Below, one piece after another: positions 24,474 through 62,374 of a stretch of DNA of 64,000 nt. The translations under genes and the position numbers were made by a program. The notes beneath the pieces are model-generated. The model worked only from the letters and a program-made list of their open reading frames with translations, had not been told where the DNA came from and did no database searches. Each line of letters opens with the position of its first letter. The stretch's first letter is position 1. The stretch comes from a virus, in IMG/VR virus record IMGVR_UViG_3300017971_000007; one strand, given 5' to 3'.

Positions 24474-24768
24474 GAAATACTGGAAATGGTTCGTGGCTGG
24501 TCTAGTATCAGCCACTATCGCTATAATGGGGGTATTGTTGTGGAGGAGAGGAAAGGTCAAAACGGATTCTGTAACCAGCGACAAGGCCGCGGACAAACTT
24601 GAGAAGGACTTAATTGAGATTCAGAAGAAGAAAGAAGACGACCTAAAAAAATTGGAGGAGCAGCGCAAGGATAAGCTCGGTAGGATGTCAGAAGAGCAGC
24701 ATGAAGAGTACGAGAAGTTGAAAAACAAACCCGTAGAGGAAGTTGCCGAATGGATAGACAAGCTCTAG
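24457..24768 (+). CDS. membrane-anchored coiled-coil protein (i-spanin-like)
   Basis: N-terminal TM (WFVAGLVSATIAIMGVLLW), then a charged coiled coil; follows the holin-like gene. Confidence 0.45.
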   Translation: MLEKIKKYWKWFVAGLVSATIAIMGVLLWRRGKVKTDSVTSDKAADKLEKDLIEIQKKKEDDLKKLEEQRKDKLGRMSEEQHEEYEKLKNKPVEEVAEWIDKL

Positions 24769-25514
24769 ACCTATATCCGTCATTCTTTGACGAACTAGAA
24801 AAAATCGCTGACTATAGCACAGCAGCAATTGCGCACGAATTAGGCCATGCTCAAGCTTTTGAGCAAAGCAAGATACCTGTAGGTCTAGATATTGGCGGAA
24901 GGGCGGCGATAAAATTAGTAGGCAATCTCGCATCATACCTTTCGACTCTACAAGGTAAGCCTGGTTTGGCCGCAATCTCATCGTTAGTAGCTGATTCCCC
25001 GACATTAGTAAGTGAGGGAAGAGCAAGTTACAAGGCCTTGAAGTCCCTGAAAGAAATGGGAATCAGTGAAGACGACTACAAGACTACCAGAAAGAATCTA
25101 GCCAAGGCATTCGGGACGTACATGATTCCAGCTGCAGCCAATGCTCTTACTAGAGCCGGTGCCTCGCATTTGATGAAGAAGGGTGTCGTGGGCAGGAGCC
25201 CCGATTCATTGGCTGGGACATTAATGACTGAATCGGTTATCGGTATGTTAGGTTCTGGAGCACTGAAAAAGTCATTCGACAAAACAAGGAAAGACTCGGT
25301 GTTAAGTAGAGAGCAGGTAGAGCAGTTAAAGAAGCAGATGGGAGTAGCTACTGGATTTTACAAGGCCAAGAAATCCCTACAATCAGATGCGTATATGCCT
25401 CCTCAACCAAAAATTCTTAGGAAGCCCATCGAGAGAAGTTTAAAGCCGTACCTGAGAGAGAAATCGAAATCTAAAGAGATTGTAGAAAAAGGCGGAATAT
25501 TGCTTTTGGATTAG
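24750..25514 (+). CDS. HExxH zinc metallopeptidase-like protein (YugP/neutral Zn peptidase-like) with SFFDELEKIA leader
   Basis: AIAHELGHA motif plus downstream PTLVSEGRASYKAL...L.KAFGTY (candidate third-ligand Glu segment). Confidence 0.7.
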   Translation: MDRQALDLYPSFFDELEKIADYSTAAIAHELGHAQAFEQSKIPVGLDIGGRAAIKLVGNLASYLSTLQGKPGLAAISSLVADSPTLVSEGRASYKALKSLKEMGISEDDYKTTRKNLAKAFGTYMIPAAANALTRAGASHLMKKGVVGRSPDSLAGTLMTESVIGMLGSGALKKSFDKTRKDSVLSREQVEQLKKQMGVATGFYKAKKSLQSDAYMPPQPKILRKPIERSLKPYLREKSKSKEIVEKGGILLLD

Positions 25515-25809: not shown

Positions 25810-26117
25810 ACGGTTTCAAGAAAACAATCGAGAGACTTGGACTAGTAGAAAAAGGGGTAATCGATGAACTCAAATTGGGGGGCGAGGAGCTTCTAGATTA
25901 TCTCGTCCAAAAGAAGATACTTGATAGTGAGTATCTTCCAATTATCAAGGAAGTGGCCGAGGATGTAGGAAGCGAGAACCAGCTTCAAGTTCTTAGGGGG
26001 GAACAGAAGATACTGAAGGTTCAGTGCTCTCACGTGATCAAGAAATCGGCGAAGATAATTGCTAGGATGAGAGATGCTCCTATCCCCAAGAAACATGATC
26101 TAGTGGCAGTAAAATGA
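25806..26117 (+). CDS. hypothetical protein
   Basis: 103 aa, ATGA overlaps on both sides. Confidence 0.6.
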   Translation: MNGFKKTIERLGLVEKGVIDELKLGGEELLDYLVQKKILDSEYLPIIKEVAEDVGSENQLQVLRGEQKILKVQCSHVIKKSAKIIARMRDAPIPKKHDLVAVK

Positions 26118-27514
26118 ACTCATCATTCTTCGACGAATTAACAAAGATAGCAGAAGAGCATAAACTACAAGGACATACTAATTTCCAGGGTATTCCGATT
26201 GCCGTAGAGAATAGGAAAGGGTCTGTTAGGAAAGGAACAGATTCTGACGGGAATGAGTGGCGAACGGAGATGAAGTACCCGTACGGGTATGTGAAGGGGA
26301 CGAAGGGGGCTGATGGGGAAGAAATCGATGTCTATGTCGGTCCTAATAAAGAATCCCCTAATGCTTTCGTAGTCCATCAAAAGGACAAGGATACCGGGAA
26401 GTATGACGAGGATAAATGCTTTCTTGGGTTCGATTCCAAGAAAGATACTAGAGAGGCTTTCCTGAAACACTACGACAGCCCGAAATTTTTGGGGCCTATA
26501 TCCAAGGTTCCGATAGAGAAGCTAAAAGAAAAAATAAGAGAAGGTAAGCAGCTGACGAAAATCAGTTCTTGTGTGGAATTTGAGAAAAATGCTGTCGACC
26601 CCCTCACGTTGGCCGGATTAGGGGCCTTGTCCCATGTAGGCGCGAACCTGGCCGTGAAAGCGGGACACGGAACAAAATTTCTTAGGAATGTGAGAAGCGG
26701 AGGTCTAGCCAGAGGAATCCGTTCTGGAATAGAAGGAAAGCCGCAGGGAATCGGAAGCAGGATGCTGGAAACGTGGGCCGGTCCGGAATTGGTGGCCACA
26801 GAGCATGCTGGAAGAGGTATCGGAAAGATATTAAGAGGGAGAACTCCTCATCAGCAAAAAAGAGCACTAAAGAAATTACGAAAAGCCGTGGCTATGAACC
26901 CAAACTTAAAACATACCCCGATAATGGAGGACGTAGTAGGAGGAGTAACTAAGGCAATAGAGGGAGGATTACCGAAAGCTGGACCGGTTAGAGAAGCTGG
27001 AAGGCTTGCAAGAGCTGCCGCATTCGCTCCAGCACCTATTCTGGCCGCGACCGAACCCTCGGCCTTAGTTCATATGGGAATTAATGTGGCCAGAAAGGGT
27101 GTAGCTCAAAGCAAAGCAGGCAAAGAGTTCATGAGAAAGGGTATGAAACGTGGTCTAGTAGAAGGGGGAGCAGATGCTGCTCCTTCTGTTAGGGAGAGGA
27201 TAATGGATGTCCTAGTTTCTCCAGCCGCCTTGCACACAGAACGTATGGGCAGAGCCATGGCGGACCTTCCTGCAACAGCTAGTAAAGAGCAGTTAGCTAG
27301 ATTAACCGGAGCTAGCCATAGTTTGATGGGTCAAAAAAGATTGAGAGGTGCTATCAAGAGGGCACCTAAGGCAGCCGAAGAAAAAATTAAAGGCGAGGCA
27401 AGACAGATTAGAGGCGATATCCAGGAAATGGCCCGTCCGGCTCCAAGGAAGGCTTCTCCAGCACCTTCTGTCGGTGCTACAGATTACGGCATACCATTGG
27501 GAGTAAGATGGTGA
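26114..27514 (+). CDS. inorganic-pyrophosphatase-like (InPase) domain fused to a basic Gly/Ala-rich region, with SFFDELTKIA leader
   Basis: GIPIAVENRKGSVRKG.D.DG.EW...M..PYGYVKGT.GADGEEIDVYVGP...FVVHQ...G.YDEDK.FLGF matches the phage InPase domain pattern. Confidence 0.75.
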   Translation: MNSSFFDELTKIAEEHKLQGHTNFQGIPIAVENRKGSVRKGTDSDGNEWRTEMKYPYGYVKGTKGADGEEIDVYVGPNKESPNAFVVHQKDKDTGKYDEDKCFLGFDSKKDTREAFLKHYDSPKFLGPISKVPIEKLKEKIREGKQLTKISSCVEFEKNAVDPLTLAGLGALSHVGANLAVKAGHGTKFLRNVRSGGLARGIRSGIEGKPQGIGSRMLETWAGPELVATEHAGRGIGKILRGRTPHQQKRALKKLRKAVAMNPNLKHTPIMEDVVGGVTKAIEGGLPKAGPVREAGRLARAAAFAPAPILAATEPSALVHMGINVARKGVAQSKAGKEFMRKGMKRGLVEGGADAAPSVRERIMDVLVSPAALHTERMGRAMADLPATASKEQLARLTGASHSLMGQKRLRGAIKRAPKAAEEKIKGEARQIRGDIQEMARPAPRKASPAPSVGATDYGIPLGVRW

Positions 27515-47211: not shown

Positions 47212-48003
47212 ATGGATGCGCTTGTTTATATTTCCTGCTCTGAGGAATTAGAGAAAACGGCTGGTCCTATTCTAAATAGGATATGGAAATCTGGATTAGG
47301 TAGGGCAGGAGTCGGAGCTCTTGGAGGAGCAGCTGCGGGGGCGCTAGCATCCCCAGAAGATAGATTAAAGGGGGCTGTTAGAGGTGGAGCTCTGGGAGCA
47401 GGACTCGGGTATGCATCTCCGCTCCTAACGGCCGCAGGCAGGAAGGGATTTGGAGAAAGAGTGAAAGATATATATCAGGCCCAAGTTCACGGTCTAACAG
47501 GTCGTGGAAGCATGCCGAAACGTGGATTAAAAGGCAAAGACTTGGAAAGGCTTGAGAGACTGGAAAATGCTGGTCTCACTAATATCCCTGGGGTTATGAA
47601 AGCCATTCGAAAGAATCCGAAACAGACGATTAAAGCTCTATATGATGATATGGGGACTTTGGGGAAGGGTATGATGGCTCTGGATTTGGCATCGCAGGCG
47701 CACAACGTAGCAACAAATCCAGAGGCTAGGACAGGAGAGAGTGTTGGCGGGGCACTAGGAAGTACGGTTGGGTATGCGTTGGGAGGAGCTCTTCCGTTCT
47801 CATCCAGCTCATTGCTAGGTGCAGCAGGAGGGACTGCCGGAAAGTTGGTAGGGAGGGGGATAGGAAAATTAGTCGGCAGCAAAGAGAGCAAAGATTTATC
47901 CCTTAAACCGATCCAGAAATTTGAATCAGTTAGGCGGCTCGGGGAAAATGCATTACCGGTTAGTCGAGTATCGGCTCCATATCTAAGAATGAGCGGAGAA
48001 TGA
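47212..48003 (+). CDS. basic glycine-zipper protein with EELEKTA leader
   Basis: SCSEELEKTAG, then GxxxG arrays (GLGRAGVGALGGAAAGA, GGALGAGLG, GGALGSTVGYALGG). Confidence 0.65.
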   Translation: MDALVYISCSEELEKTAGPILNRIWKSGLGRAGVGALGGAAAGALASPEDRLKGAVRGGALGAGLGYASPLLTAAGRKGFGERVKDIYQAQVHGLTGRGSMPKRGLKGKDLERLERLENAGLTNIPGVMKAIRKNPKQTIKALYDDMGTLGKGMMALDLASQAHNVATNPEARTGESVGGALGSTVGYALGGALPFSSSSLLGAAGGTAGKLVGRGIGKLVGSKESKDLSLKPIQKFESVRRLGENALPVSRVSAPYLRMSGE

Positions 48004-48004
48004 G

Positions 48005-49897
48005 ATGTCATTATTGGGTGAATCGTACAGCAGGTCTCCGGTAAGAGGGCGAGTTACTGGTTCAGTAAGAGGGGTCGCTTACCCAAGTCCGTTCTTTGAT
48101 ATAGGCCAAACCTATATGCCGTCGTCCATCAAAGAGATGTTTAGATGGTGCAGGCATTATTTTCTTACGCATCCAATTATAAATACAATCGCTTTCAAAT
48201 TAAGCCAATATATAATAACTGATATAGTGTATATGACGGAAAATCTGAAACTCAAGGGGATGTGGTCCGAGTTTTTAGAAGAAAAGCTCAGATACAGAAT
48301 ATTCCAACTTGAGTCGGGTTTAGACTACAACGTATACGGAAATTGTATTGTCAGTATATTTTTTCCGTTCATTAAAATGCTGAGATGTAAGAAATGTAAC
48401 TTCACTTCCGAGGCAAAGAGTTCCAAATATTACTTCAAAAATTTTGAATTCATGTGGAAGTGTCCGTCATGCGGATTCCACGGCCCAGCTTCAGCTAGTG
48501 ATTATCATATTAGGAAGGCCGACGGGATCAGACTCATTAGATGGAACCCAGAAAACATAGATATTACGTACAATGAAATAAATGGCTCTACTACGTACTT
48601 CTATAGAATGCCGCTACAGACAAAAAACGACATTATTATGGGAAAGAAGAGCGTGGTGGAGGAAGTACCACAGCTTTACATTGAGTCCTTAAAAAGAAAA
48701 AAGGCTATCGTCTTTTCAAACGACAATCTCTTTCACTTCAAACGAGGAACCCTGGCCGGGAAGGATAGAGGATGGGGTACTCCAGCTCCATTACCAGTTC
48801 TGAAAGATGTCTACTATCTCCAAATACTAAAAAAGAGTCAGGAGTCAATCGCCTTAGAGCATATAGTTCCTCTTCGCACGATATTCCCTCAGGCAAGTTC
48901 AGGGCTCGCGGACCCATTCAAAAACGTGAATCTTGTTGATTGGAGAGACCAGATTCATGACGAGGTGAATCGTTGGAGATTTGATAACAACTACATGCCG
49001 ATTCTCAGCTTCCCCATAGGGACCCAAAGTATAGGAGGGGACGGGAGAGCTCTCCTTCTCGGACAAGAAATAAGAGTTTGGCTGGAACAAATAGCTATAG
49101 GAATGGGAGTGCCGACAGAGCTGATATTTGGCGGTCTATCTTATTCCGGCAGCAATGTATCTCTTAGGATGTTAGAGAATAGCTTTATCACCAACATCCT
49201 AGAGCACGTGAGCATGCTCAACTGGTGCATCAGAAGAATCGGGACGTATATGAATTGGGAAATAGTTCAAGCTCGATTCAAACCATTTAAAATGGCTGAC
49301 GACCTACAAAGAAAAGCATATAACTTGCAGCTTAATCAACTCGGAAAGATATCATCTACTACCTTAATTGAGGACGCTGATTTTGATGCAGCTAGGGAGA
49401 ATGAGCTAATAGAAACAGAAACGAATGCAATGGCTGAAGCTCAAAAGAAATCCAGGCTGGCTCAAGCCAACATCGAAGGTGAAAGCCAGATGATAATGAT
49501 GAGATGGCAGTCAAAAGCCCAGGTCGAACAACAACAAATGATGTCACAGCAGGCTCCTGCTCCTGGAGAGCCCGGCGCAGAAGCAGAAGGAGTAACTCAA
49601 GAAGGAGGACAGATACCACAAGAAATGCAATCACCGTTGAACGCCGGTCAACAGCAGGCTGGAGGGAGTGCGAACTTTGACTTACTCTCCGAGGCCCAAA
49701 ACATCGCTTCCCAGTTAATTCAATTGGACGAGAATTCACAGACAGCCGCTCTTCAGAATATTTCTTCCCAAAGCCCTGAGTTTGGGCAGGTAGTAGAAAG
49801 TATGCTCGTTTCGATGAAACAAGAGACCTCGCCACAGGGTGCTCCGCTACCGGAACAGAAACCACCGCGGCGAGGTCCTGGATCCTCCTTAATCTAA
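48005..49897 (+). CDS. portal protein with zinc-ribbon insertion and Gln/Pro-rich C-terminal extension
   Basis: Portal-like pattern HPIINT, DYNVYGNC, FHFKR...GWGTP..PVLK, GMGVP.ELI.G..SYS; CKKC...CPSC insert. Confidence 0.75.
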   Translation: MSLLGESYSRSPVRGRVTGSVRGVAYPSPFFDIGQTYMPSSIKEMFRWCRHYFLTHPIINTIAFKLSQYIITDIVYMTENLKLKGMWSEFLEEKLRYRIFQLESGLDYNVYGNCIVSIFFPFIKMLRCKKCNFTSEAKSSKYYFKNFEFMWKCPSCGFHGPASASDYHIRKADGIRLIRWNPENIDITYNEINGSTTYFYRMPLQTKNDIIMGKKSVVEEVPQLYIESLKRKKAIVFSNDNLFHFKRGTLAGKDRGWGTPAPLPVLKDVYYLQILKKSQESIALEHIVPLRTIFPQASSGLADPFKNVNLVDWRDQIHDEVNRWRFDNNYMPILSFPIGTQSIGGDGRALLLGQEIRVWLEQIAIGMGVPTELIFGGLSYSGSNVSLRMLENSFITNILEHVSMLNWCIRRIGTYMNWEIVQARFKPFKMADDLQRKAYNLQLNQLGKISSTTLIEDADFDAARENELIETETNAMAEAQKKSRLAQANIEGESQMIMMRWQSKAQVEQQQMMSQQAPAPGEPGAEAEGVTQEGGQIPQEMQSPLNAGQQQAGGSANFDLLSEAQNIASQLIQLDENSQTAALQNISSQSPEFGQVVESMLVSMKQETSPQGAPLPEQKPPRRGPGSSLI

Positions 49898-50344: not shown

Positions 50345-50362
50345 TACTAAAAAAAGCCACTA

Positions 50363-50397
50363 TCTCCTTGCAGCACTCGGTTAATGCTGCAAGGAGA
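50363..50397 (-). terminator. 13-bp perfect hairpin between two leftward genes (terminator/attenuator candidate)
   Basis: tctccttgcagca / tgctgcaaggaga with a 9-nt loop; on the minus strand a T7 run follows after a 7-nt gap. Confidence 0.5.
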
Positions 50398-50416
50398 CCG
50401 ACGAAGAACGCTATTT

Positions 50417-50566
50417 TCACTCCCCTCCGTCCTCGTCCTCGTCCTCCTTTCTCTCATCCTCATCCTGCGGATCCAACTGGCTTTCCAGCCAGTCTTCCGC
50501 ATCCCCCAGGCCTGACAACATGATTATCAGAAATGACAATGCTGTTCTCGTCTTTAGTTTCCTCAA
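50417..50566 (-). CDS. small acidic-tailed peptide
   Basis: TTG start at 50566 with AGGAG RBS, just downstream of the TTCGGTATAAG motif: MRKLKTRTALSFLIIMLSGLGDAEDWLESQLDPQDEDERKEDEDEDGGE. Confidence 0.5.
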   Translation of the reverse strand: MRKLKTRTALSFLIIMLSGLGDAEDWLESQLDPQDEDERKEDEDEDGGE

Positions 50567-50596: not shown

Positions 50597-50624
50597 CTTA
50601 TACCGAAAACGATTCACTGTTTTG
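50597..50624 (-). promoter_or_regulatory. second copy of candidate promoter CAAAA-N12-TTCGGTATAAG
   Basis: Same motif as 44070-44096. Confidence 0.65.
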
Positions 50625-50651
50625 ACTGCACATAAGGCCGTTTGCTAATCT
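50622..50651 (+). promoter_or_regulatory. sigma70-like promoter candidate TTGACT-N18-TAATCT upstream of the RNAP gene
   Basis: Same architecture as 44102-44131, again back-to-back with the leftward motif. Confidence 0.4.
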
Positions 50652-50706: not shown

Positions 50707-53700
50707 ATGTCTAGACTAGCCCCAGAAGAAAACTTCGAAGCGTTAAAAGAAAAAGTATCAGAAACATTAAAAGGGATATTCCCTATAGAAGGGAAGAATC
50801 AGTCACTAAGGCTGGATGATGTTCTAATCAATGACGATAAAGATATCGATGATTTCAGAACACAGAAGGAGGCAAGACTGAATGGAAGGACGTGGTCCGT
50901 TCCGGTCAGCGCCTCTTTTTCGTTGATAGACAATGAGACCGGAAAAGTAATAAATACTAGGCGGCAGAAAATAATGAACCTGCCAAAAATCACAAGCAGG
51001 CACAGTTACATAGTCGATGGGCAGGAGTATCAAGTCGATAATCAATGGCGGTTGAAATATGGAGTGTATTCCAGAAAGAACGATAAGGGAGAAATAGAGT
51101 CGACGTTTCACACGAGAGGAGCTCCTGGATTTAAACTGAGATTTGATCCAGAATCCTCAAATTTTGTGATGAAGAAAGGAAATTCTGAATTTCCTGCATA
51201 CCCAATTCTCAGGGAGATGGGAGTATCTGACAGCAACATAGAGCAAATTTGGGGAAAGGAGATATTGGAGACAAACAGATCTACTGACCCTAAAAAAGCT
51301 CTTATGAGTTTCCATAGAGCCATTACTGGTACTAAAGCCCAGAATGTGGAGGAGGCGAGAGAGTATATCAAAGATTATATGGCAAAGACTGATATGGATG
51401 AGGATGTAAACAGGATAACTCTGGGAAGGAAGCAAAGTGTAGTTGACGGGAATCTGATGCTGGAGGCGAGCGGAAAGCTGCTGGGAATAAGTCGGGGGAC
51501 TAAGAAACCGGATGTAAGAGATTCTCTCATCTTTAAATCTTTCCACTCTACAGAAGATTTCATTTCCGAGGCCCTGACCAATAGATCTAGAGATATACTG
51601 AAAAAAATAAGAAATAATTTAGACAGAAAGCAGCAGGTAAAAGAAATAATCGGCACTGACTTATTCAACAAGCCCATAGCCCACGCATTCACAAAAACAT
51701 CTCTATCGAATCACGTCGATCAGACGAATCCTTTGGAGATGTTATCTGGAGCAATGAAGACAACGATAATGGGAGAGGGCGGAATAAAGGACGCTCATAA
51801 AATAACTGATGACGCGAAATTGGTCGATGAGTCTCATCTTGGATTCCTAGACCCAATCCATACTCCAGAATCTGATAGAAGCGGGATTACGTTGCACTTA
51901 CCGGTTGGGGCGTACAAGAAAGGAAATACTGTCGTAAATAAGCTTTACAACCTAAAAACCGGGAAGATGGAAGAGGTAGACCCAGAAAAAGCCTATAATT
52001 CGAAAATAGCTCTGCCAGACCAAGTTAAATGGGTGAAAGGGAAACCGGTTGCTCTGCATGACGAGGTAAAGATGAGCGGCCAGGAGAACGAGATTATAAC
52101 TGGATCGTTAAAAGATGCAGATTATGCTGTAACGTCCCCAGTTCAGCTGTTCTCCATCGCCTCGAACATGGTCCCATTTCTTCAAAACAATAGCGGGAAC
52201 AGAGCCACGTATGCCGGAAAGCAGATGGAGCAGGCCCTGTCCTTAAAGCATAGAGAAGAACCTCTAGTCCAGACAGCTATAGTCTCTGGAAGGCCTGAAT
52301 CCAGCTTAAATGAGTTTGTCGGAAGGATTAATTCCCAGAGATCTCCTATAAACGGGGAAATTGTGGAAGTAAAGAACGACGCGATTATTGTGAAGGGAGA
52401 GGATGGAAAGAATAGAGAAGTTCAAATCTATGACAATTTCCCTCTAAATGACGACAAATCATTTATGCACTCAGACCCGATTGTGAAGGTCGGAGACAAA
52501 GTAAAGAAGGGTCAGACGTTAGCTGATACGAATTTCTCGAAAAACGGGAAACTGGCGATAGGTACAAATTTAAAAGCCGCATATATCCCGTTCAAAGGTT
52601 ACAACTTCGAGGACGGGATAGTGATAAGTGAGTCCGCGGCCAAGAAACTCACTAGTGAGCATATGAAGAGAAAGTCCTTGGATGTGACTAGCGAGCATAT
52701 TCAAGACAAAAATAAATTTATAGCCTATGAGAGGGCAAATATAAATCAGGAACAGGCCGACAAGCTCAGTGACGACGGGATCATAAAAAAAGGAAGTCTT
52801 GTAATGCCTGGAGATACGCTAATAGCGGCTTTAAAGAAGAGGGAGGAAACAGACGAGGCTAGAATAAAAGCCAAGATGCACAAATCCCTGGTCAAGCCCT
52901 ACGATAACGTATCTGTGAAATGGGAAAGTGATTATCCGGGAGTAGTTACCGGAATCGTAAAAAAAGGTGGAAAGACTGAGGTCCATGTTAGGACGGAAGA
53001 GCCTGCTGAAATCGGAGACAAACTTTGTGGGAGGTCTGGGAACAAGGGCATTATCACAAGAATAATTCCAGACCATGAGATGCCGAAGACTAAAGATGGG
53101 GAGCATGTCGAAATAGCTCTTAACCCGACTGGTGTAGCAGGAAGAATAAATCTGGGGCAGATTCTGGAAACGGCTGCCGGAAAAATTGCTCAGAAGACAG
53201 GAAAGCCTTACACGGTTCAGAATTTCGATGGGACAGAGGATATGACAGAGAGGGTTTCCAGAGAGCTAAAAGCTCATGGCATAGAGGATAAGGAGGAATT
53301 AGTTGACCCCAAAACCGGAAAAGTTATGGGAAAGGCCTTAGTAGGTCCGCATTATATTCACAAACTAAAACACCAGGTAGAGAAAAAATTAGTAGCTAGA
53401 GCAGGAGGCCCTGGATATCTGTATGACATGAACAAGATTCCGAAGAGTGGTTCAAGACCCGGACTCGGAGCTCAGGCTATGGATGCCTTAGGCATGTACG
53501 CGATGTTAGCGCACGGAGCAAACGCTAATGTTAGGGAGATGGCCACTTATAAAAGTGATGCAGAGAATAATGATAGGCTTTGGTCTTCGATTCAAGCTGG
53601 GGATGTTCTCCCTCCTCCAAGACCATCATTTGCGTACAACAAGTTCATTGATTTGCTGAAAGTAGCTGGGGTAAACACCGTAAAAGAAGGAAACTCCCTG

Positions 53701-56700
53701 AATCTGGTTCCCATAACTGACAAGCAGATACTTGAGATGAGTAATGGGGAAATCAAAGATGCTGGGAGAATTGTAACGGCTAAGGACATTAAAGAGGAAA
53801 AAGGCGGTCTCCTGGATAAGCAAATAACTGGAGGGGTGAGTGGAACGAAATGGTCGCACATAACACTTCCGGAAAAAATGCCCAATCCTATCTTCGAAAA
53901 AAGCATCGTCTCCCTAACTGGAATTAAGGCTAAGGAATATGAAGACATCGTATATGGCAGAAAAGCTATCAATACCAAAACCGGGAAAATAGTTCCTCCA
54001 GAAGATGGAATATCCGGCGGTCCAGCCATAGAGCATCTTCTAAGCAAAGTAGACGTCGGAAAAGAGTTGGAGGCTGCAGAAAAACAACTGAACGACCCCA
54101 ACATGAGAGCGGACAAGCTAGACCCCATAAACAAGAAAGTAAAATATCTGAAATCGCTGAAACGGCTGGACATGAATCCGGTTGAGGCTTACATGACCAA
54201 GCATGTTCCAGTTCTTCCGCCGTCTATGAGACCTATCTCAGTTATGCAGGATGGAACCCTAATCCAAGATGATATGAATGGGGTTTATAAAGGTCTGGGC
54301 CTCGTAGTAAATAAATTCAAGGACGCTGACCCTAGCGTTCTCCCGCAGGAGGATATCAATAACAGACGAGGTTCCATATACGATGCTCTGAAGAGCGTGT
54401 CCGGGCTTGGCGGGTACATAAACAGAGAACATAAGGGAGTCCTAGATATCATAAGTGGTAAATCAGCATCCAAAGACAGTGACCTGAAAAGCGGAAGTCC
54501 TAGAGATTCGTATTTCCAAAGCAAGCTCATAAAAAGGAAACAGGACCTGTCTATGCGCTCCACAATCATTCCTGAGCCTGAATTAAGCCTGGACCAGGTA
54601 GGGATCCCCAGACAGGCGGCAATGGAAATCTACAAACCGTTTGTCATGAAAGAGATTAGAGGGATGACTGGTGTGTCCCCTCTTCAAGCCCAAAAACTGG
54701 TAGAGAAGGGAGATACTCTAGCAAACAGGGCGCTGGAAAGGGTTGTAGAGAATAGACCGCTTCTAATGAAAAGAGACCCAGTTCTTCACAAGTACGGGGT
54801 CCAGGCATTCAAGCCTATTCTCACTAGCGGAAAAGCGATAAAGATTCATCCGCTAGTGACATCAGGATTTAATGCAGATTTCGACGGGGATCAACAAATA
54901 AACACGGTATTCGCGTTAGTTCCTAGAGATATGTATAATCACGATTCTGGATTTTGGGGTGCACGGAAAGTAGGAATGAGCGCAAGATTTAAAGAGACTG
55001 TCGGATATCTAGAGTCCATGGATGGAGAATTCGCGGTCTGTAATTTGGAAGATTTCCCTAGAGAGAAGAAATTAAAATCCAAAGATCATATCGACTTCTG
55101 GACCGTACCCAATGGAATAAAGGTCGTGGCAATGGATGAGAGGACAAATCAACCTGTTTTGGCTGATGTCAGCGGATGGTCATTTCATAGGAAACGAAAG
55201 GTTCAGATTGTAGAGCTCGGCAGCGGCAGACAGATAATAACTGATGATGATGAGAGGGCTGTATATGGAATAGATGTATCTTCATTAAAATGGTGTAGGA
55301 AGAGACCTGATGAATCCAAGAATCAGTTTGTCCCGGTGCTGAGTAAGATCCCTGTTCCGGATGAGCTCATAACACGGATACCGCTTCCAGATTCTCCTCG
55401 TTTGAGAAAGGAAGCTCGTTTAGACGGGCAATTTGGATATTTTTTAGGAACAATGATTGGGAATGGATGGCCTGGAATCTCAAAAGGTGTTCCTAGAGAC
55501 GTCTGCTTTTCTACAGAATATGATTCCGTATATGATGCCTGGTTTGAGTCTCTCCTTTCTGTATTCAAGAAACACCCGAATATCTATTACAGGAGTACAA
55601 CCAGAGGTCAATTTAAAGGATCAGAGGGGTCTGAATCGCAAATTGTTTCCTGTGCCCCGCTAGCGGTTCTAATCAAGGAGTTGATAGGAAGTGGGGCAGA
55701 GAACAAACACCTTCCCCCATTCTATATCTCCGCTCCGAACATATTTATTAAGGGATTGTTAGCTGGTTTGTGGGATACCGATGGTTCTGTTTCCTGGTCC
55801 GAAGGAAAGAGAACTCCACAATTCATGTGTTCATATACATCAAAATCCATTCGACTGGTGCAGGAGATACAACAACTTCTAAGAATGCTAGAAATATCAT
55901 CAACAATTACCTCTACAGTAACGCCTGCTGGGGAGCCGTTTTGGGTACTAAATGTTTCGATTGTTGATTTCCATAGGTTTGGTGGATTCCCTCTTAAGAA
56001 TAGAAGGAAGAAAGAGATACAGGATGAATTTCTGAGGGAGAAGCAGCCAGATTCTTCTATGTCATATAGTCGTTACAGATTGGTTCCTGTCCCATCTGCT
56101 TTAGCAAATGAATTGAGGACTGTTCTTGGTTCGAGTTGCAGGACCTTATACGTTACTTTGTCGAAAGCTATAGAACGTCAGTATGTGTCAAAAGAGACTG
56201 CCGTGAGAATAATTAAGATAGTAGGGGAGAGATGCAGACATCCTTTATACTCTGAATGGAAATCCATCGTTCTTATGAATAACGTCCATTTTGAGAGAGT
56301 TAAGGGAGTCAAGAAAACGGAAATAAGAGAGGACGGATACGACCTTACTGTTCCTGGATACGAGACTTTCATGTCTCTAGACGGAGTAATTCTATCAAAT
56401 ACAATGTCTGCCTTCGTTCCTATCTCTTCCGAGGCCGTATCAGAGGCCGCAAAAATGTTCCCGTCTAGGAACTTGTTTAATCCGGCAACAGGGTCCCTGA
56501 TGTATAAACCCACACTAGAAAGTCAATTAGGACTGTACATGATGTCCAAAGACGGGGACATCAAAGACAAGTCTTTCAAGACCTTCCAGGAGGCCGCCGA
56601 TGCAGCTAAAAAAGGACAGATAGCTTTCACTGATGTAGTGAAGATAGGAAAGGATAAGACTACAGTCGGTAAGATGATGATAGCCAACTCTCTTCCTGAG

Positions 56701-58422
56701 GAGATGCGCCGGGAGATAATTACAGGCGGGGAAATGACGGGTAAGAGACAGGCAGAAATTCTTACTAGAGTAGCTAAAGAGCGTAAGGCAGATTTCGGGC
56801 AGGTAGCGGATAAGTTCAAGGATATGGGAAATACGTATTCCTCAGAAACGGCGTTCTCTCTGGGAATAGAGGACCTAAAAACTGATAAATCCAGACGTAA
56901 TAGGATACTAGAAGAAGCTGATAGACGGGTTAAACAGGCTCTAAAATCAAAAGACCCAAACAAAGCCTTGAAAGATGTGGTCAGTGTCTACGATAAAGCA
57001 TCTGAGAAGATGATTGAGACCATAGAAAAGGAACACGGGAAAAAGCCGACAAACCTATTCAATATGATGAAATCTGGAATCAAGCCTCAGATGGAAGCCT
57101 ATCGACAAATCACCATGGCCCCGATGTTGGTCATGAATGCCAAGGGCGAAGTGATTCCTAATCCAATCAGAAAATCATGGTCTGAGGGATTAGACACAGG
57201 AGACTACTGGACTCAGATGTCCGGAGCTCGAAAAGGTGTCATCCAGAAGGTCCAGTCTGTTAAAGACCCAGGATATTTCACCAAACAAGTAGTAAATACT
57301 GTCATGAACAACAGCATCTTGGCCGAAGATTGCGGAACAAAGAGAGGGATAAGTCTGGATGTGAGTGAGAAAGATATCCTGGACAGATATCTTTCTGAGG
57401 ATATCAAAGTCGGAAACAAGGTCCTGAAGAAAGACACTCTGATAACTCCAGGAGTCAGAGACACTTTGAGGAATAATAAAGTCAATAAGGTATTAGTGAG
57501 GTCACCCTTAAGATGCGAGCACGGAAGGGGTCTATGCAGTAGATGTTATGGACTGGATGAGAATGGAGAAAATGTTACCACAGGGAAGAATGTTGGAATT
57601 GTTAGTGCTCAATCTATAGGAGAGAGAGCGACCCAACTATCTATGAAGACATTCCATTCAGGTGGTGTAGCCCCTGTAGGGGAGAAGTCTAAACAACAGG
57701 CGGCGTTGACTGATGGGTTTAATAGGGTCCAGCAGTTGGTCCAGATGAACAAAACTGTTCCCGGTTCAGCTACACTAAGCACTGTGAACGGTGTCGTGGA
57801 CAGTGTCAGCAAAGACAAAGCCGGAGGATATAGCGTGGTTATTAGCGGAGTCAGGCATTACATACCTCAGGATAGGGGAGAACCGATGGTTTTCTCTGGA
57901 AATAAGGCCGTTCCCATTACCAAGGGATCAAAGATTCAAAAGGGAGCGCCGCTATCTGGGGGTCCGATAAATCCGCATGAGATGTTGCCATTGACTGGAA
58001 TAAACAAGGTCCAGAGTTATGTATCTGGGGCTTTGCATGATCTATATAAGAGTGAGGGGATTAGGCGGAGAAATATCGAAACTGCAGTCAAGAGCATGAC
58101 TAATCTCACCAAGATAAGAAATCCAGGAGATAACCCCGAATTCATAAGAGGGGATTTTGCGCCTACCTCATACGTGCAGGCTCTGAATAAGCAGCTAGTC
58201 AAGGACAAGCGAAAGCCTATAGAGCACACTCCCGTTATCAAGGGAGTAAAAACCATGCCCCTGGACATTCAAACGGACTGGATGGCAAGATTAAACCATG
58301 AACGTCTGACTGATACCGTAATCGATGCAGCAAACCAGGGATGGAAGTCCGATATACACGGAACCCATCCGATTCCGGCTCTGGTCTATGGAGCAGAGTT
58401 TGGCAAAGGAAAACCATACTAA
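50707..58422 (+). CDS. rpoBC: single-polypeptide beta-beta' two-barrel RNA polymerase (bacterial-like), interrupted by an intein-like element
   Basis: beta motifs DQTNPL, TPES, GYNFEDGIVISE, GDKLCGRSGNKG, LNPTGVAGRINLGQ, KLKHQV; beta' motifs PVLPP..RP, RDPVLH, NADFDGD, GARKG, RSPLRC, AQSIGERATQLSMKTFH. Start reassigned to the ATG at 50707 (AAAGGAG RBS). Confidence 0.95.
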   Translation: MSRLAPEENFEALKEKVSETLKGIFPIEGKNQSLRLDDVLINDDKDIDDFRTQKEARLNGRTWSVPVSASFSLIDNETGKVINTRRQKIMNLPKITSRHSYIVDGQEYQVDNQWRLKYGVYSRKNDKGEIESTFHTRGAPGFKLRFDPESSNFVMKKGNSEFPAYPILREMGVSDSNIEQIWGKEILETNRSTDPKKALMSFHRAITGTKAQNVEEAREYIKDYMAKTDMDEDVNRITLGRKQSVVDGNLMLEASGKLLGISRGTKKPDVRDSLIFKSFHSTEDFISEALTNRSRDILKKIRNNLDRKQQVKEIIGTDLFNKPIAHAFTKTSLSNHVDQTNPLEMLSGAMKTTIMGEGGIKDAHKITDDAKLVDESHLGFLDPIHTPESDRSGITLHLPVGAYKKGNTVVNKLYNLKTGKMEEVDPEKAYNSKIALPDQVKWVKGKPVALHDEVKMSGQENEIITGSLKDADYAVTSPVQLFSIASNMVPFLQNNSGNRATYAGKQMEQALSLKHREEPLVQTAIVSGRPESSLNEFVGRINSQRSPINGEIVEVKNDAIIVKGEDGKNREVQIYDNFPLNDDKSFMHSDPIVKVGDKVKKGQTLADTNFSKNGKLAIGTNLKAAYIPFKGYNFEDGIVISESAAKKLTSEHMKRKSLDVTSEHIQDKNKFIAYERANINQEQADKLSDDGIIKKGSLVMPGDTLIAALKKREETDEARIKAKMHKSLVKPYDNVSVKWESDYPGVVTGIVKKGGKTEVHVRTEEPAEIGDKLCGRSGNKGIITRIIPDHEMPKTKDGEHVEIALNPTGVAGRINLGQILETAAGKIAQKTGKPYTVQNFDGTEDMTERVSRELKAHGIEDKEELVDPKTGKVMGKALVGPHYIHKLKHQVEKKLVARAGGPGYLYDMNKIPKSGSRPGLGAQAMDALGMYAMLAHGANANVREMATYKSDAENNDRLWSSIQAGDVLPPPRPSFAYNKFIDLLKVAGVNTVKEGNSLNLVPITDKQILEMSNGEIKDAGRIVTAKDIKEEKGGLLDKQITGGVSGTKWSHITLPEKMPNPIFEKSIVSLTGIKAKEYEDIVYGRKAINTKTGKIVPPEDGISGGPAIEHLLSKVDVGKELEAAEKQLNDPNMRADKLDPINKKVKYLKSLKRLDMNPVEAYMTKHVPVLPPSMRPISVMQDGTLIQDDMNGVYKGLGLVVNKFKDADPSVLPQEDINNRRGSIYDALKSVSGLGGYINREHKGVLDIISGKSASKDSDLKSGSPRDSYFQSKLIKRKQDLSMRSTIIPEPELSLDQVGIPRQAAMEIYKPFVMKEIRGMTGVSPLQAQKLVEKGDTLANRALERVVENRPLLMKRDPVLHKYGVQAFKPILTSGKAIKIHPLVTSGFNADFDGDQQINTVFALVPRDMYNHDSGFWGARKVGMSARFKETVGYLESMDGEFAVCNLEDFPREKKLKSKDHIDFWTVPNGIKVVAMDERTNQPVLADVSGWSFHRKRKVQIVELGSGRQIITDDDERAVYGIDVSSLKWCRKRPDESKNQFVPVLSKIPVPDELITRIPLPDSPRLRKEARLDGQFGYFLGTMIGNGWPGISKGVPRDVCFSTEYDSVYDAWFESLLSVFKKHPNIYYRSTTRGQFKGSEGSESQIVSCAPLAVLIKELIGSGAENKHLPPFYISAPNIFIKGLLAGLWDTDGSVSWSEGKRTPQFMCSYTSKSIRLVQEIQQLLRMLEISSTITSTVTPAGEPFWVLNVSIVDFHRFGGFPLKNRRKKEIQDEFLREKQPDSSMSYSRYRLVPVPSALANELRTVLGSSCRTLYVTLSKAIERQYVSKETAVRIIKIVGERCRHPLYSEWKSIVLMNNVHFERVKGVKKTEIREDGYDLTVPGYETFMSLDGVILSNTMSAFVPISSEAVSEAAKMFPSRNLFNPATGSLMYKPTLESQLGLYMMSKDGDIKDKSFKTFQEAADAAKKGQIAFTDVVKIGKDKTTVGKMMIANSLPEEMRREIITGGEMTGKRQAEILTRVAKERKADFGQVADKFKDMGNTYSSETAFSLGIEDLKTDKSRRNRILEEADRRVKQALKSKDPNKALKDVVSVYDKASEKMIETIEKEHGKKPTNLFNMMKSGIKPQMEAYRQITMAPMLVMNAKGEVIPNPIRKSWSEGLDTGDYWTQMSGARKGVIQKVQSVKDPGYFTKQVVNTVMNNSILAEDCGTKRGISLDVSEKDILDRYLSEDIKVGNKVLKKDTLITPGVRDTLRNNKVNKVLVRSPLRCEHGRGLCSRCYGLDENGENVTTGKNVGIVSAQSIGERATQLSMKTFHSGGVAPVGEKSKQQAALTDGFNRVQQLVQMNKTVPGSATLSTVNGVVDSVSKDKAGGYSVVISGVRHYIPQDRGEPMVFSGNKAVPITKGSKIQKGAPLSGGPINPHEMLPLTGINKVQSYVSGALHDLYKSEGIRRRNIETAVKSMTNLTKIRNPGDNPEFIRGDFAPTSYVQALNKQLVKDKRKPIEHTPVIKGVKTMPLDIQTDWMARLNHERLTDTVIDAANQGWKSDIHGTHPIPALVYGAEFGKGKPY
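54892..56400 (+). mobile_element. atypical intein with LAGLIDADG homing endonuclease (503 aa) inserted after the RNAP catalytic motif
   Basis: In-frame insert between NADFDGD and TMSAFVPIS; HINT-like segments (KVQIVELGSGRQIIT; YDLTVPGYETF...VILSN|T); LAGLIDADG motifs FLGTMIGNG and LAGLWDTDG. Confidence 0.9.
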
Positions 58423-58757
58423 TGGAAGACGAACTTTACATCGCAAAAATGGCTTCAGCTTTTTTGGATGAGATGACGGAGATAGAAAAAGTGGCCTTAT
58501 TGGGAGGGGCGCTGAACTTTTTCAAAGGGGGTTTAAGAGGACTATCCAAAGCCGTCTCGGCTCCAGCTGGAACCTCATTCGCAAGACGTATGGGAGTGGG
58601 AAAAACTGGATTGTGGAATCAGCTCAGTCACGCGTACAAGAGCGGAGCTCAGAAGGGGGGATTTAGGGAGGGTGCTCGTAGAGTGATGGCTCAGAAACCT
58701 GTCCAAATTGCGGGAACCGTGGCCGCTCCCGTAGCCGCGGGTTATGCTCTCGGTTAA
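58422..58757 (+). CDS. small basic Gly/Ala-rich protein with AFLDEMTEIEKVA leader
   Basis: ATG overlaps the RNAP stop (TAATG); MEDELYIAKMASAFLDEMTEIEKVA is followed by an amphipathic peptide. Confidence 0.65.
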   Translation: MEDELYIAKMASAFLDEMTEIEKVALLGGALNFFKGGLRGLSKAVSAPAGTSFARRMGVGKTGLWNQLSHAYKSGAQKGGFREGARRVMAQKPVQIAGTVAAPVAAGYALG

Positions 58758-58759
58758 CA

Positions 58760-59983
58760 ATGCCTCCAGCAATAAGAGACACAAAAAACTCTCCAACCAG
58801 GTCTAGCCAAAGAGCGGCGTGGATATCAAAGGCTATCGTCACGAACGTCGACCTAAAAAACTATACCGTGGATGTCATTACTGAGTACGAGGGAAAGACA
58901 TTCGACAGTATCCAAGTCGGGAGCCCGTATTTCCACACCAACAATGGAGAAGGTATCACCGCAATGCCCGAAGTCGGGGCTTTATGTGAAATATGCCAGC
59001 CCTCGGACGAGGATACTCCATTTATTTTGTCCTTTATCGGGTCCTTCGAAATGGAATTCGCCAAGCAAGATAATTTAGAGGACCTGGCCGGAGAAGCGGA
59101 AGTCGAGACCGAGGAATTAGAGAGTACCCTTAGCACCCCCACATCAACTACATCCACAGGTTCGTCTGACAAAAACGTTTCAAGTGCGTCGGCGCGAGGG
59201 GGACGCCCATTTCTTAATCCAGGGGATATTCTTCTAAGGACTAGAGACGAGAACTTCATAATTCTCAGAAGAGGTGGAGTAATCCAGATTGGCTCAACTC
59301 CGATGTGTCAATCCATTTACATCCCTCTCAAGAACTACATCAGGCATTTCTGCGAGAACATAGAAACTAGTACTCCCGGAGGGGTTCTGACATGGAACGT
59401 TCAAAGGAAAGAGAAGGACCCTGCCGGGGAAGCACCTATCTTGTATAGATTATCTCTCAGGGATAAAGCTCAGAACGACAAGGCTGATATTCAACTAAAG
59501 ATGGGTCATGTTTCCGATTCAATAAGGTATGAGTTATCGGTAGCTCCGTCAGGTATATCCACATCTACTGGGAGTATCAACAATTCCAAATTCAAGATGG
59601 TCGTAGATAACGTCGGGAATCAGACATTTAACATGTCAGGTTCTTTAGATTACACCATCTCCGGTTCTCGGAAATTTTCTGTATCAGGTTCTGATGAGGT
59701 CTCGATAGGCTCTTCCAGGATTGTGAAGGCATCCACTGAATCTACTGAAATCACAGGAGCTCATAGCCTAAAAGCTGCCTCCAGTTCTGAGGAGATAACC
59801 GGCCTAAAAGCAATAAAAGCCACTCAAGTTTACTTGGGAAAGGCTTCGAACTTTTCTGCTGTATTGGGGGAGTTACTGGTTATTTGGCTAACCAAGCACG
59901 TTCATCCGATGTGGAACGTTCCAGATGTTCAGGTGGCGGAGTTGCCCAATATCCTTTCCAAGAATATAAAGGTTAGTCCATGA
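58760..59983 (+). CDS. baseplate central spike (gpV/gp138/gp5-like)
   Basis: OB-fold start (AIVTNVD..NYTVDV...GEGITAMPEVG), Ser/Gly beta-helix repeats, HVH metal-binding tip motif near 59897. Confidence 0.75.
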   Translation: MPPAIRDTKNSPTRSSQRAAWISKAIVTNVDLKNYTVDVITEYEGKTFDSIQVGSPYFHTNNGEGITAMPEVGALCEICQPSDEDTPFILSFIGSFEMEFAKQDNLEDLAGEAEVETEELESTLSTPTSTTSTGSSDKNVSSASARGGRPFLNPGDILLRTRDENFIILRRGGVIQIGSTPMCQSIYIPLKNYIRHFCENIETSTPGGVLTWNVQRKEKDPAGEAPILYRLSLRDKAQNDKADIQLKMGHVSDSIRYELSVAPSGISTSTGSINNSKFKMVVDNVGNQTFNMSGSLDYTISGSRKFSVSGSDEVSIGSSRIVKASTESTEITGAHSLKAASSSEEITGLKAIKATQVYLGKASNFSAVLGELLVIWLTKHVHPMWNVPDVQVAELPNILSKNIKVSP

Positions 59984-60358: not shown

Positions 60359-62374
60359 ATGAATCTTTTTCTGGATGATGTCACTCCTCGGATTATGGAA
60401 AAGATCAGTGCAGCTTTCGCCAGGCTGTCTGAGAATCCTGACGATTGGCAATCTGAAATTACAGATGAACTATACAGGCAAGTTCCGTTTATCGGAGATT
60501 TCGACACGAAGATAATCATGATGGAACTTGACCCAGAGAGAAGATATGCACTAGCGGCCATAAAGCTTAGCAGTAGGCTGAATAAAATCCCGAAACAGGA
60601 GAACGGACACAATCCGTATAGCAATGAAATAAGTCCAGATCTATCTGGACAAAAGACGGCAATAATACCGGTCATCGTACAAGAGGGAAAGATGAGCCCG
60701 TTGGATGTATTTATATCCAACGGAATGTTTCAACCGCTGACGGACAAAAGGCTGAAGAAGGAAATGTTTAGGCCTCAGATGTTCGAGGCGATTGGAGAGT
60801 CACCAGGAACTAAGGACATGACCGAGATGTTGTATCCGCCATATCGAATGGGATTGGGGGGGACGAACTCGTATATGGGGCATATGCAAAAATCCAGCTC
60901 TCCAAATAGGATAATTGACGTTATTCGACATACCCTCAATCAGAATGAGGTGGAGAAGGTATGCAGTGCTATAACCGAGGATGAAGAAACTTTGTCCCTG
61001 TTTATCAGAAATCCAGAGGCCAGTCATTTCATGGACAAGCTGGTGGAGGACGTGAAGACAGTTTCTTCTAGTGAGATGATGAAGACGGCCTCGGGGATGA
61101 TCAAACCCAAAGTCATCCAAATATCAAAAATAGACGGCGGATTCCGTGTTAAGACAGCCAACCCCGAGGCTTTACTTCCAGAGGAAAATGATATCCCAAG
61201 ACCGTTGGCTGAAGAAATGGCTGGAGCAGATGTGGTGAGGAAGGTGGAAAATGGGGAGACTGTGACTATCAGTACGAACAAGGCCTCCAGAGAATCTCTG
61301 GCTGATATTACGGTCAGTGTCGTGGAAGAGTTTGGAGAATATAAGGTCAAGACAAAGGACGGTCGGGAACTAGTCGGATGGGTGTTTCCTCATGTTGTAG
61401 ACCTAGACGGGACCTCACTAGATATTTCTGTTTTCACGAACGGTTCCGAATCTGCTGTCCAGGAGTCAATAGCTGGGAGTCTTGTAGGAAAGGGGACGAA
61501 TTTAATAGACGAGAATCCGAGCGGATTTGGTATTTTCTATTTAGCCAGACAGGGAGGAGCTACTGCCATAGTTCCGGTGAATATTGTGGCAGAAGCTCAA
61601 TCAACAGAGCTGGTTGATGAATACATCTGCGAAACCATGCTTGGGGAAAGAGTGATTATCAAGAAGCTACCGGGTTTGGTTAAGGCCGCGCAGATAGAAG
61701 ATGGTATGTACGCTATCCCAGATGATTGTGGGTGGATTCCCCTCCAAAGAATGACTGAGCTCTCAGAGAATCCGGACGAGTTTATGAAAACTTCAGCCGT
61801 GCGACTCGATTTTGATGCGGTCAAGGTCATGCATGACCACGGCTCTTATTCCATGAAGGGTCGGCACATTGAAAAATTAGCATCTGTGTGCCAGACGAGC
61901 GGTATTTCAGAAGACCAGGCAATATTCAATCTGGCTATTTTGGGTATCCCTTCTGATATATCCAGAGAGAAATTGGCGGAATCGAGGAAATATTCTCATT
62001 GGGTGAATATACAGGGAGCGAAACCAGTAAAGTTGTTGAGTGAGAGAATCAAAGAAGCGAGGATGAAATCCATTGAGTTCGTGAAGAAGGTTCCGAGAAT
62101 GCCGATGTTCTTGAAAGAGGCGGCATTGATTGACGACCCATCGACTGTTGATAATGTCCTCTCTCTGGGATTTCTCAATTCAGAGAATGTATCAACATTT
62201 GTGGAATACATCCCTGATTTGGAAAGAACTGTCTCGAGAATGTGCAATCTCTTGATAGCTTCCAGATTAGGCCTGAAAAATATCATTGACGTGACTGCCC
62301 TGGAACGGCTAATTAAACATATGGATGTGGTAATTAATGGACTAAAAGAATTGTCTCAGTACACAAATGATTAG
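60359..62374 (+). CDS. large hypothetical protein with repeated K-x-A/S sites (probable head/core protein)
   Basis: AGGAG RBS; MEKISA, MMKTAS, FMKTSA, IEKLAS, FLKEAA at apparent domain boundaries. Confidence 0.6.
   Translation: MNLFLDDVTPRIMEKISAAFARLSENPDDWQSEITDELYRQVPFIGDFDTKIIMMELDPERRYALAAIKLSSRLNKIPKQENGHNPYSNEISPDLSGQKTAIIPVIVQEGKMSPLDVFISNGMFQPLTDKRLKKEMFRPQMFEAIGESPGTKDMTEMLYPPYRMGLGGTNSYMGHMQKSSSPNRIIDVIRHTLNQNEVEKVCSAITEDEETLSLFIRNPEASHFMDKLVEDVKTVSSSEMMKTASGMIKPKVIQISKIDGGFRVKTANPEALLPEENDIPRPLAEEMAGADVVRKVENGETVTISTNKASRESLADITVSVVEEFGEYKVKTKDGRELVGWVFPHVVDLDGTSLDISVFTNGSESAVQESIAGSLVGKGTNLIDENPSGFGIFYLARQGGATAIVPVNIVAEAQSTELVDEYICETMLGERVIIKKLPGLVKAAQIEDGMYAIPDDCGWIPLQRMTELSENPDEFMKTSAVRLDFDAVKVMHDHGSYSMKGRHIEKLASVCQTSGISEDQAIFNLAILGIPSDISREKLAESRKYSHWVNIQGAKPVKLLSERIKEARMKSIEFVKKVPRMPMFLKEAALIDDPSTVDNVLSLGFLNSENVSTFVEYIPDLERTVSRMCNLLIASRLGLKNIIDVTALERLIKHMDVVINGLKELSQYTND

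Follow-up and report, generated by a model that had tools for sequence, protein, structure and literature searches.

A streamlined single-chain beta-beta' RNA polymerase of bacterial type, encoded between portal and probable spike genes in a large phage clade

Two-barrel RNA polymerases (RNAPs) of phages are already known. In this study, we describe a single-chain, apparently sigma-partnered form of such an enzyme, and it is this form that is new here. It is encoded by one open reading frame (ORF) at positions 50,707 to 58,422 of a 64,000-nucleotide stretch of the virus record IMGVR_UViG_3300017971_000007 (the window), which lies on a 174,585-bp contig and makes up about a third of the genome. 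Among cultured phages, the best matches share about 30% identity and come from Vibrio phages D69, D148 and D181 and Salmonella phage Arash. These phages belong to the same clade, show the same seamless beta/beta' junction and carry the gene in the same place, just after the portal gene; genome size is about 180 kb, and Arash also has a sigma70-family gene homologous to those of other relatives. Their beta' is cut after the catalytic loop (at about residue 1981/1986 of the window ORF, about 85 residues past the loop), whereas the beta' of the window is unsplit. One product of the cut form, of 1525 aa, is beta-beta'N and the other, of 606 aa, is beta'C; their genes are separated by 0.6-7 kb that carry other genes. 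The Arash genes have been annotated as ordinary beta and beta' subunits, with the fusion unmentioned (PMC10585845).

The mReC phage RNAPs are likewise bacterial-like, deep-branching beta/beta' enzymes of large uncultured tailed phages (Weinheimer & Aylward 2020, PMC7481178). In the entries covered they are always encoded by two genes, of about 1360 and 1005 aa or 1020 and 905 aa, whereas the window gene is fused. In those matching IMG/VR contigs and look-alikes that show both genes, beta' precedes beta; identity to the window is 23-33%, the group forms a separate clade (support 0.998), and some of its genomes carry two sets. We considered whether the fused family is mReC and rejected this, since mReC has two separate genes in the entries covered and the trees part the two groups. 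A two-barrel RNAP without alpha and omega is also found in phages phiKZ and AR9, where one set is packaged in the virion for early transcription (PMC7598289, PMC13282480). Those enzymes consist of 4-5 highly diverged polypeptides in two paralogous sets with non-sigma70 specificity subunits (gp68, gp226), whereas the window type has one chain, one copy per related genome, bacterial-level similarity and, in its relatives, a sigma70-family partner gene. The crAss-like virion RNAP gp66 is also a single polypeptide with both barrels that is packaged and injected, but it has no detectable sequence similarity to beta or beta' beyond DxDxD (PMC7481178) and is of a different evolutionary type. The mReC paper mentions fusion for crAss phages only. 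A 2021 comparative jumbo-phage review and a 2026 review cover split, sigma-less enzymes only. We found no description of the single-chain form in open-access papers and preprints.

Bacterial RNAP assembly is taught to proceed from alpha2 through alpha2-beta to alpha2-beta-beta'. In the cellular rpoBC fusions of Helicobacter and Wolbachia and in the engineered E. coli beta-beta' tether, the beta C-terminus is joined to the beta' N-terminus in one ORF, which shows that these ends are adjacent and that fusion is tolerated. The cellular fusions are full-size, use alpha2, omega and host sigma, and nest within bacteria, whereas the phage enzyme is about 25% shorter, falls outside the sampled bacteria and has no alpha or omega gene in related genomes.

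By its domains and motifs, the ORF encodes a streamlined single-chain bacterial-type beta-beta' RNAP. Its frame is uninterrupted by any stop or frameshift from the ATG at 50707, which is preceded at 8 nt by the ribosome-binding site AAAGGAG, to the TAA at 58420-58422. Both ends are secure, because M1 and the C-terminal residues (invariant ...EFGK.KPY) match those of close relatives. The Pfam domains occur in bacterial order, with Rpb2_3 and Rpb2_6 (beta) in the first 900 residues followed by Rpb1_1, Rpb1_2, Rpb1_3 and Rpb1_5 (beta'); Rpb2_6 reached E 2e-59, Rpb1_2, Rpb1_3 and Rpb1_5 were above the cut-off, and Rpb1_1 was weak. Among PDB sequences, the first 995 residues matched bacterial beta (Thermus, E 7e-75) and the remainder bacterial beta' (E 4e-98), with archaeal and eukaryotic subunits scoring far worse (about 1e-24). 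The junction peptide KVAGVNTVKEGNSLNLVPIT covers residues 985-1004, and the beta C-terminus ..PSFAYNKFIDLLKVAGVNTVKEGNS, the equivalent of the E. coli beta C-terminus, passes without a linker into the equivalent of about residue 15 of beta'. The results bear out a preliminary description made from the letters alone, which had reported beta and beta' motifs in bacterial order in one ORF of about 2070 aa without its intein, a seamless join near 53670-53700, which the junction peptide covers, and an enzyme much shorter than a typical beta plus beta'. The features of the gene and its upstream region are as follows.

50622..50651, + strand: inferred promoter-like element TTGACT-N18-TAATCT, in the 360-nt divergent region 5' of the RNAP gene
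50707..58422, + strand: RNAP ORF, 2571 aa, or 2068 aa minus the intein
50707..53697, + strand: beta module, aa 1-997, with Pfam Rpb2_3 and Rpb2_6; aligned to Thermus beta 79-1089
52849-52890, + strand: flap-tip helix equivalent TDEARIKAKMHKSL, aligned to Thermus TPEERLLRSIFGEKA
53029-53049, + strand: GRSGNKG active-site motif, aa 775-781 (the conserved GNKG lysine motif of the beta barrel), from motif position
53659..53718, + strand: seamless beta/beta' junction, KVAGVNTVKEGNS/LNLVPIT; frame open in all phage-clade members tested
53698..54891, + strand: N-terminal part of beta', aa 998-1395, aligned to E. coli beta' 177-466
53803..53868, + strand: site of the missing beta' N-terminal four-Cys zinc ribbon; the Cys-free stretch here is GGLLDKQITGGVSGTKWSHITL
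54280-54324, + strand: clamp helices of beta', by alignment
54871-54891, + strand: NADFDGD Mg-binding loop, aa 1389-1395, from motif position
54892..56400, + strand: LAGLIDADG intein, 503 aa, Q1396-N1898, with +1 Thr and a non-canonical N-terminus; absent at exactly that point from intein-free relatives
56401..58419, + strand: C-terminal part of beta', aa 1899-2571, with bridge helix and trigger loop (Pfam Rpb1_3 and Rpb1_5); aligned to beta' 464-941 and Thermus beta' 929-1462
57328-57552, + strand: second zinc site, DCGT...RCEHGRGLCSRCYG, retained

Pairwise alignment gave 27.6% identity to Salmonella beta and 30.1% to Salmonella beta', and the phage enzyme is about 680 aa (about 25%) shorter than beta plus beta' of Salmonella or E. 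coli. Compared with Salmonella, the beta part lacks about 30 N-terminal residues and three internal blocks, which we take to be the lineage-specific inserts SI1 and SI2 and an insert near residue 1120-1180 (E. coli numbering). For beta', the phage chain has no counterpart of the first 14 and last 42 residues, of the four-Cys zinc ribbon (residues 68-99) or of the trigger-loop SI3 region. The GNKG motif, NADFDGD, the second zinc site, the clamp helices and the flap-tip helix equivalent are all kept. Every module for catalysis and for handling nucleic acids is thereby represented, in the bacterial order. As aligned, the phage core is thus a bacterial minimum that retains both classic sigma docking sites, the beta' clamp helices and the beta flap-tip helix.

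The preliminary description had recognised no alpha, omega or sigma gene and had suggested that the enzyme may assemble without alpha. No ORF of at least 100 aa in the 64-kb window carries an alpha, omega or sigma Pfam domain. We then examined five related genomes, namely four near-complete relatives (85-100% complete; G001-G004) and Arash, each of which has one RNAP gene. The alpha N-terminal domain (PF01000) and omega (PF01192) were found in 0 of 5, with controls positive in 14 of 14; PF01193 and the alpha C-terminal domain were not searched. A homologue of the Arash sigma Gp10, 234-272 aa long, is present in 5 of 5. A profile of the five homologues matched regions 2-4 of SigA/RpoD (E 5e-14), and Pfam Sigma70_r3 was reached in all five. 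In G001, a complete genome, the sigma gene precedes the RNAP gene by about 67 kb, a distance that in the frame of the window corresponds to about 16 kb before its start. The earlier statement therefore stands for the 64 kb, and for alpha and omega in the related genomes also, but probably not for sigma at the level of the genome: since the window is just a third of the genome and the four near-complete relatives and Arash carry a sigma gene, its absence would reflect the limits of the window. Because a sigma70-family gene is conserved in four of four relatives and Arash, the enzyme is most likely sigma-dependent rather than sigma-free. It probably needs no alpha. The sigma genes of G001-G004 (L086, L087, L088 and L089; fully fused group) encode an acidic N-terminal extension of 20-45 residues that has no counterpart in Arash Gp10. 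In Arash there is a second Sigma70_r2 match, the stronger of the two, which falls in a 380-aa frame at genome positions 120974-121165.

The promoter-like element upstream of the gene recurs in the family. Of 64 non-redundant relatives, 14 have the pattern TTGAC-N16-19-TAnnnT 5' of the RNAP start, whereas shuffles averaged 0.64 and never exceeded 4, and the opposite strand had none; a consensus promoter scanner missed this element. It appears to be of the -35/-10 type, as a sigma70-family holoenzyme of host or phage would read. A second candidate, GGTATAAG as a phage promoter core, has three copies in the window, a count that 20 of 100 shuffles also attain, so it shows no enrichment. The same divergent region holds a very acidic minus-strand ORF of about 50 aa at 50415-50560 (..DPQDEDERKEDEDEDGGE), which lies 3' of the GGTATAAG copy at 50597-50604 (-) and is followed by a strong terminator with a 16-bp stem at 50362-50398.

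To place the gene within a family, we searched residues 1-1395 against a collection of 5.8 billion proteins. Among the matches listed, at least 120 clusters span beta plus beta'N at 46-100% identity; lengths are mostly 2037-2078 aa, and longer members carry inteins. In IMG/VR there are 79 distinct fused-gene loci; their contigs reach 210 kb, and several, of 168-178 kb, are near complete. A pattern scan of 185,579 prokaryote species genomes (one genome per species) gave a single match, on a 72-kb metagenome-assembled genome (MAG) contig labelled "uncultured bacterium". The fused RNAP is therefore not singular and belongs to a very large phage clade, and this long, conserved single gene could serve to mark a large group of phages with genomes of 170-190 kb.

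On this evidence we think it likely that the ORF encodes the phage's own and sole RNAP core, one beta-beta' chain that works with a phage sigma and is packaged and injected. After intein removal, the catalytic core would be a single polypeptide of about 230 kDa. The covalent beta-beta' link may replace the alpha-dimer platform that normally unites the subunits, and the loss of the beta' C-terminal tail would go with the loss of omega. The core would bind the phage sigma and read -35/-10-type promoters. Its gene would be expressed together with the virion genes from portal to spike, its translation would be coupled to that of the next gene, and the enzyme would be packed into the capsid, injected and start early transcription, as in Arash. 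Because there is one RNAP gene alone, newly made enzyme would serve later stages too. A stricter version, that of a minimal self-contained machine of one beta-beta' chain and one sigma, without alpha or omega, packed in the capsid and injected, with a fusion ancestral to a lineage that branches outside the sampled bacteria, is proposed tentatively, with doubt slightly outweighing belief. If true, it would be the first sigma70-dependent virion RNAP, a natural case of covalent fusion replacing the alpha platform, and the smallest known bacterial-type holoenzyme, without alpha, omega, zinc ribbon or lineage-specific inserts. It would also lend itself well to experiments on the need for alpha and omega. 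The single-chain form adds a third phage two-barrel design beside the split phiKZ/AR9 and single-chain crAss enzymes.

Several points weigh against the proposal of a packaged, sigma-partnered phage enzyme. The cultured-phage collection yielded no member with the fully fused gene, the 64-kb window includes no sigma gene, and host alpha or host sigma may be used. Packaging is extrapolated from Arash, with its identity of about 30%. Among the 116 proteins in the Arash virion proteome are enzymes that are unlikely to be structural (PMC10585845), so that this proteome supports packaging without deciding the matter. The N-terminus of the RNAP has no clear FFDELxKIA-like tag of the kind seen on adjoining candidate cargo proteins. 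Finally, the intein has neither a nucleophile at residue 1 nor the usual His in block B and at the penultimate position, and if it were unable to splice, the enzyme would be dead.

Packaging had been put forward as a possibility in the preliminary description, and the Arash data make it plausible. In mass spectrometry of purified Arash particles, Gp206 (beta-beta'N) gave 3516 spectra, the highest of all, compared with 1210 for Gp216 (beta'C), 467 for the sigma Gp10 and 877 for the portal (PMC10585845); per residue, the polymerase spectra are at or above those of the portal. In addition, the gene keeps its place between portal and spike, it overlaps the next gene at TAATG, and no plus-strand terminator was found between the RNAP gene and the next genes. 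Taken together with these features, the Arash proteome leads us to favour packaging of the window enzyme over its absence from the virion. A functional phage RNAP that is not packaged, made after infection to transcribe only middle or late genes, with early genes left to host RNAP and a gene position that is merely historical, is in our view unlikely. It would fit the sigma70-like -35/-10 element that precedes the gene here and in 14 of 64 relatives and that a host holoenzyme could read, as well as the lack of a clear capsid-targeting tag and the breadth of the Arash proteome; it sits poorly with the rank of the Arash homologue and the detected sigma among virion proteins, and with a portal adjacency that is kept in 69 loci, down to 31% portal identity. 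The cultured relatives Arash and Vibrio D69 exist for testing both packaging and early transcription.

We next considered the intein in the active site. Intein-free relatives (63-66% identity) read NADFDGD/TMSAFVP across the insertion point (slash), so the insert is Q1396-N1898 and the mature chain has 2068 residues. The insert matched LAGLIDADG_3 (Pfam, E 3.7e-11) and, weakly and below threshold, Intein_splicing; it carries two LAGLIDADG motifs and ends in ..GYDLTVPGYETFMSLDGVILSN. Its residue 1 is Gln, block B reads ITDDDE instead of TxxH, a Ser replaces the penultimate His, and the +1 residue is Thr. Block F is GYDLTV, with Asp at F4 rather than the class-3 Cys, block G is GVILSN, there is no WCT triplet, and the first LAGLIDADG motif reads GNGW where relatives have GDGW. 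In published definitions, class 1 inteins have Cys, Ser or Thr at residue 1, a His in block B, a C-terminal Asn that may follow a His, and Cys, Ser or Thr at +1; class 2 inteins (KlbA) have Ala1 with Cys+1, and class 3 inteins (WCT) have the triplet Trp B12, Cys F4 and Thr G5 (PMC2807308). By these definitions the window intein fits neither class 1, 2 nor 3, and of the class 1 features only the terminal Asn and the +1 Thr match. We tried the invariant Cys1444 as a relocated nucleophile and dropped it, because L021, with the same allele, has Phe there. The mature, intein-less protein is therefore a predicted product that presumes splicing by an intein without a residue-1 nucleophile.

These features raise the alternative that the gene is crippled in the window phage, with a degenerate intein that cannot splice and a 2571-aa product that is inactive or merely cleaved at the C-terminal junction. 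Gln1, the His-less ITDDDE, the penultimate Ser, the Asp of block F, the missing WCT triplet and GNGW for GDGW all speak for it. The same allele, however, occurs in five further hosts (P0011, P0072, P0088, P0119 and L021) whose RNAPs are 39-62% identical to that of the window. There it has Gln or Asp at residue 1, ends in ...LSN/T, keeps intact frames and is strongly conserved along its length. Since the same oddities recur in five divergent phages, the intein is conserved rather than decayed. The exteins also stay conserved and the related genomes have no second RNAP, so that a dead enzyme would not be kept, and we regard a crippled gene as quite improbable.

The family is an unusual intein hotspot: about seven sites of the RNAP gene take inserts repeatedly, and as many as about five inserts occur in one gene. 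On the reference P0003 the sites are at about 390, 775-785, 948, 1076, 1394, 1775 and 1813-1830. Insert-bearing proteins include P0072 (3990 aa, about five inserts), P0011 (3719 aa) and P0071 (3591 aa). Other alleles at the insertion site of the window intein read NADFDGN/C...VVWD/TM (three proteins) and NADFNGD/SC...ITRN/TM (two); the relatives concerned are P0006, P0032, P0055, P0042 and P0051. With NADFDGN or NADFNGD as N-extein, the spliced enzymes would at face value be short of one catalytic Asp. In L010 (4183-9057), the adjoining portal ORF is 1624 aa long, compared with the usual length of about 630 aa, and probably carries inserts too.

To determine where the fused enzymes branch, we built trees with FastTree (LG), a fast method, from query-anchored alignments of tblastn matches; the sampling comprised seven bacterial sequences (four named from two phyla and three contig sequences) and no archaeal or eukaryotic outgroup. 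In the beta' tree, 26 open-junction sequences form a clade (support 1.0). The seven bacterial sequences fall outside it (support 1.0), and so does a 44-tip clade (support 0.998) that contains four contigs equated with published mReC contigs. The distance from the window to bacteria is 2.6 substitutions per site, compared with 1.25 between Salmonella and Staphylococcus. The beta/beta' junction is open in every clade member tested, including the Arash type and the deepest branches, which argues that the fusion is ancestral and the Arash-type beta' split secondary. The fusion would thus be ancestral to a phage clade that branches outside the sampled bacteria. The placement of L170, a very divergent fused sequence, is inconsistent between the two trees. 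Recent capture of a cellular rpoBC fusion of Helicobacter or Wolbachia type, or a chimeric rpoB-rpoC assembly, possibilities that the preliminary description had named as fatal to its reading, would explain the bacterial gene order and bacterial-type motifs but is hardly credible given the mere 27-30% identity to bacterial beta and beta', the separate fused clade, a junction of identical design in more than 70 independent contigs, the 79 IMG/VR loci with the same fusion and the lone MAG contig match among species genomes, and is refuted as far as these data reach.

The RNAP gene is flanked by the following genes.

48005..49897, + strand: portal gene, 5' neighbour of RNAP; 31% identical to the Arash portal Gp204, with a homologue in 69 of 81 loci
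58420..58424, + strand: TAATG stop/start overlap of RNAP and the next gene, from the sequence
58422..58757, + strand: gene of a small protein (111 aa) just 3' of RNAP; its N-terminal tag, ..AFLDEMTEIEKVAL, resembles those on other window proteins
58760..59983, + strand: d2, probable baseplate central-spike protein, conserved after RNAP in 58 loci
60359-62374: d4, 671 aa, conserved 3' of RNAP in 62 loci

The order u5-u3-portal-RNAP-d2-d4-d5 of the window recurs in about 60 loci. The position between portal and spike genes and the TAATG coupling had both been described beforehand, and they hold here, the spike on the basis of a weak match: a profile of 12 d2 homologues matched the C-terminal beta-helix of T4 gp5 at E 0.002-0.03. 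The portal product gave Atlas feature and structure matches on the Portal_Mu, Phage_portal and Portal_T4 clusters, and its profile had no match among PDB sequences. For d4, the profile had no match among PDB sequences, the Atlas was blank, and the AlphaFold model (pLDDT 71, pTM 0.32) had no PDB fold match. A PHROGs search of ten neighbouring genes gave nothing useful, and a 20-kb segment had no megablast match in the phage collection. The FFDELxKIA-like N-terminal tag is shared by the products of 58422-58757, 26114-27514, 24750-25514 and 47212-48003, in the variants ..SFFDELTKIAEE, ..SFFDELEKIAD, ..AFLDEMTEIEKVAL and ..SEELEKTAG; its carriers include an InPase-domain protein and a zincin-like protein, and it may be a capsid-targeting or protease-cleaved leader.

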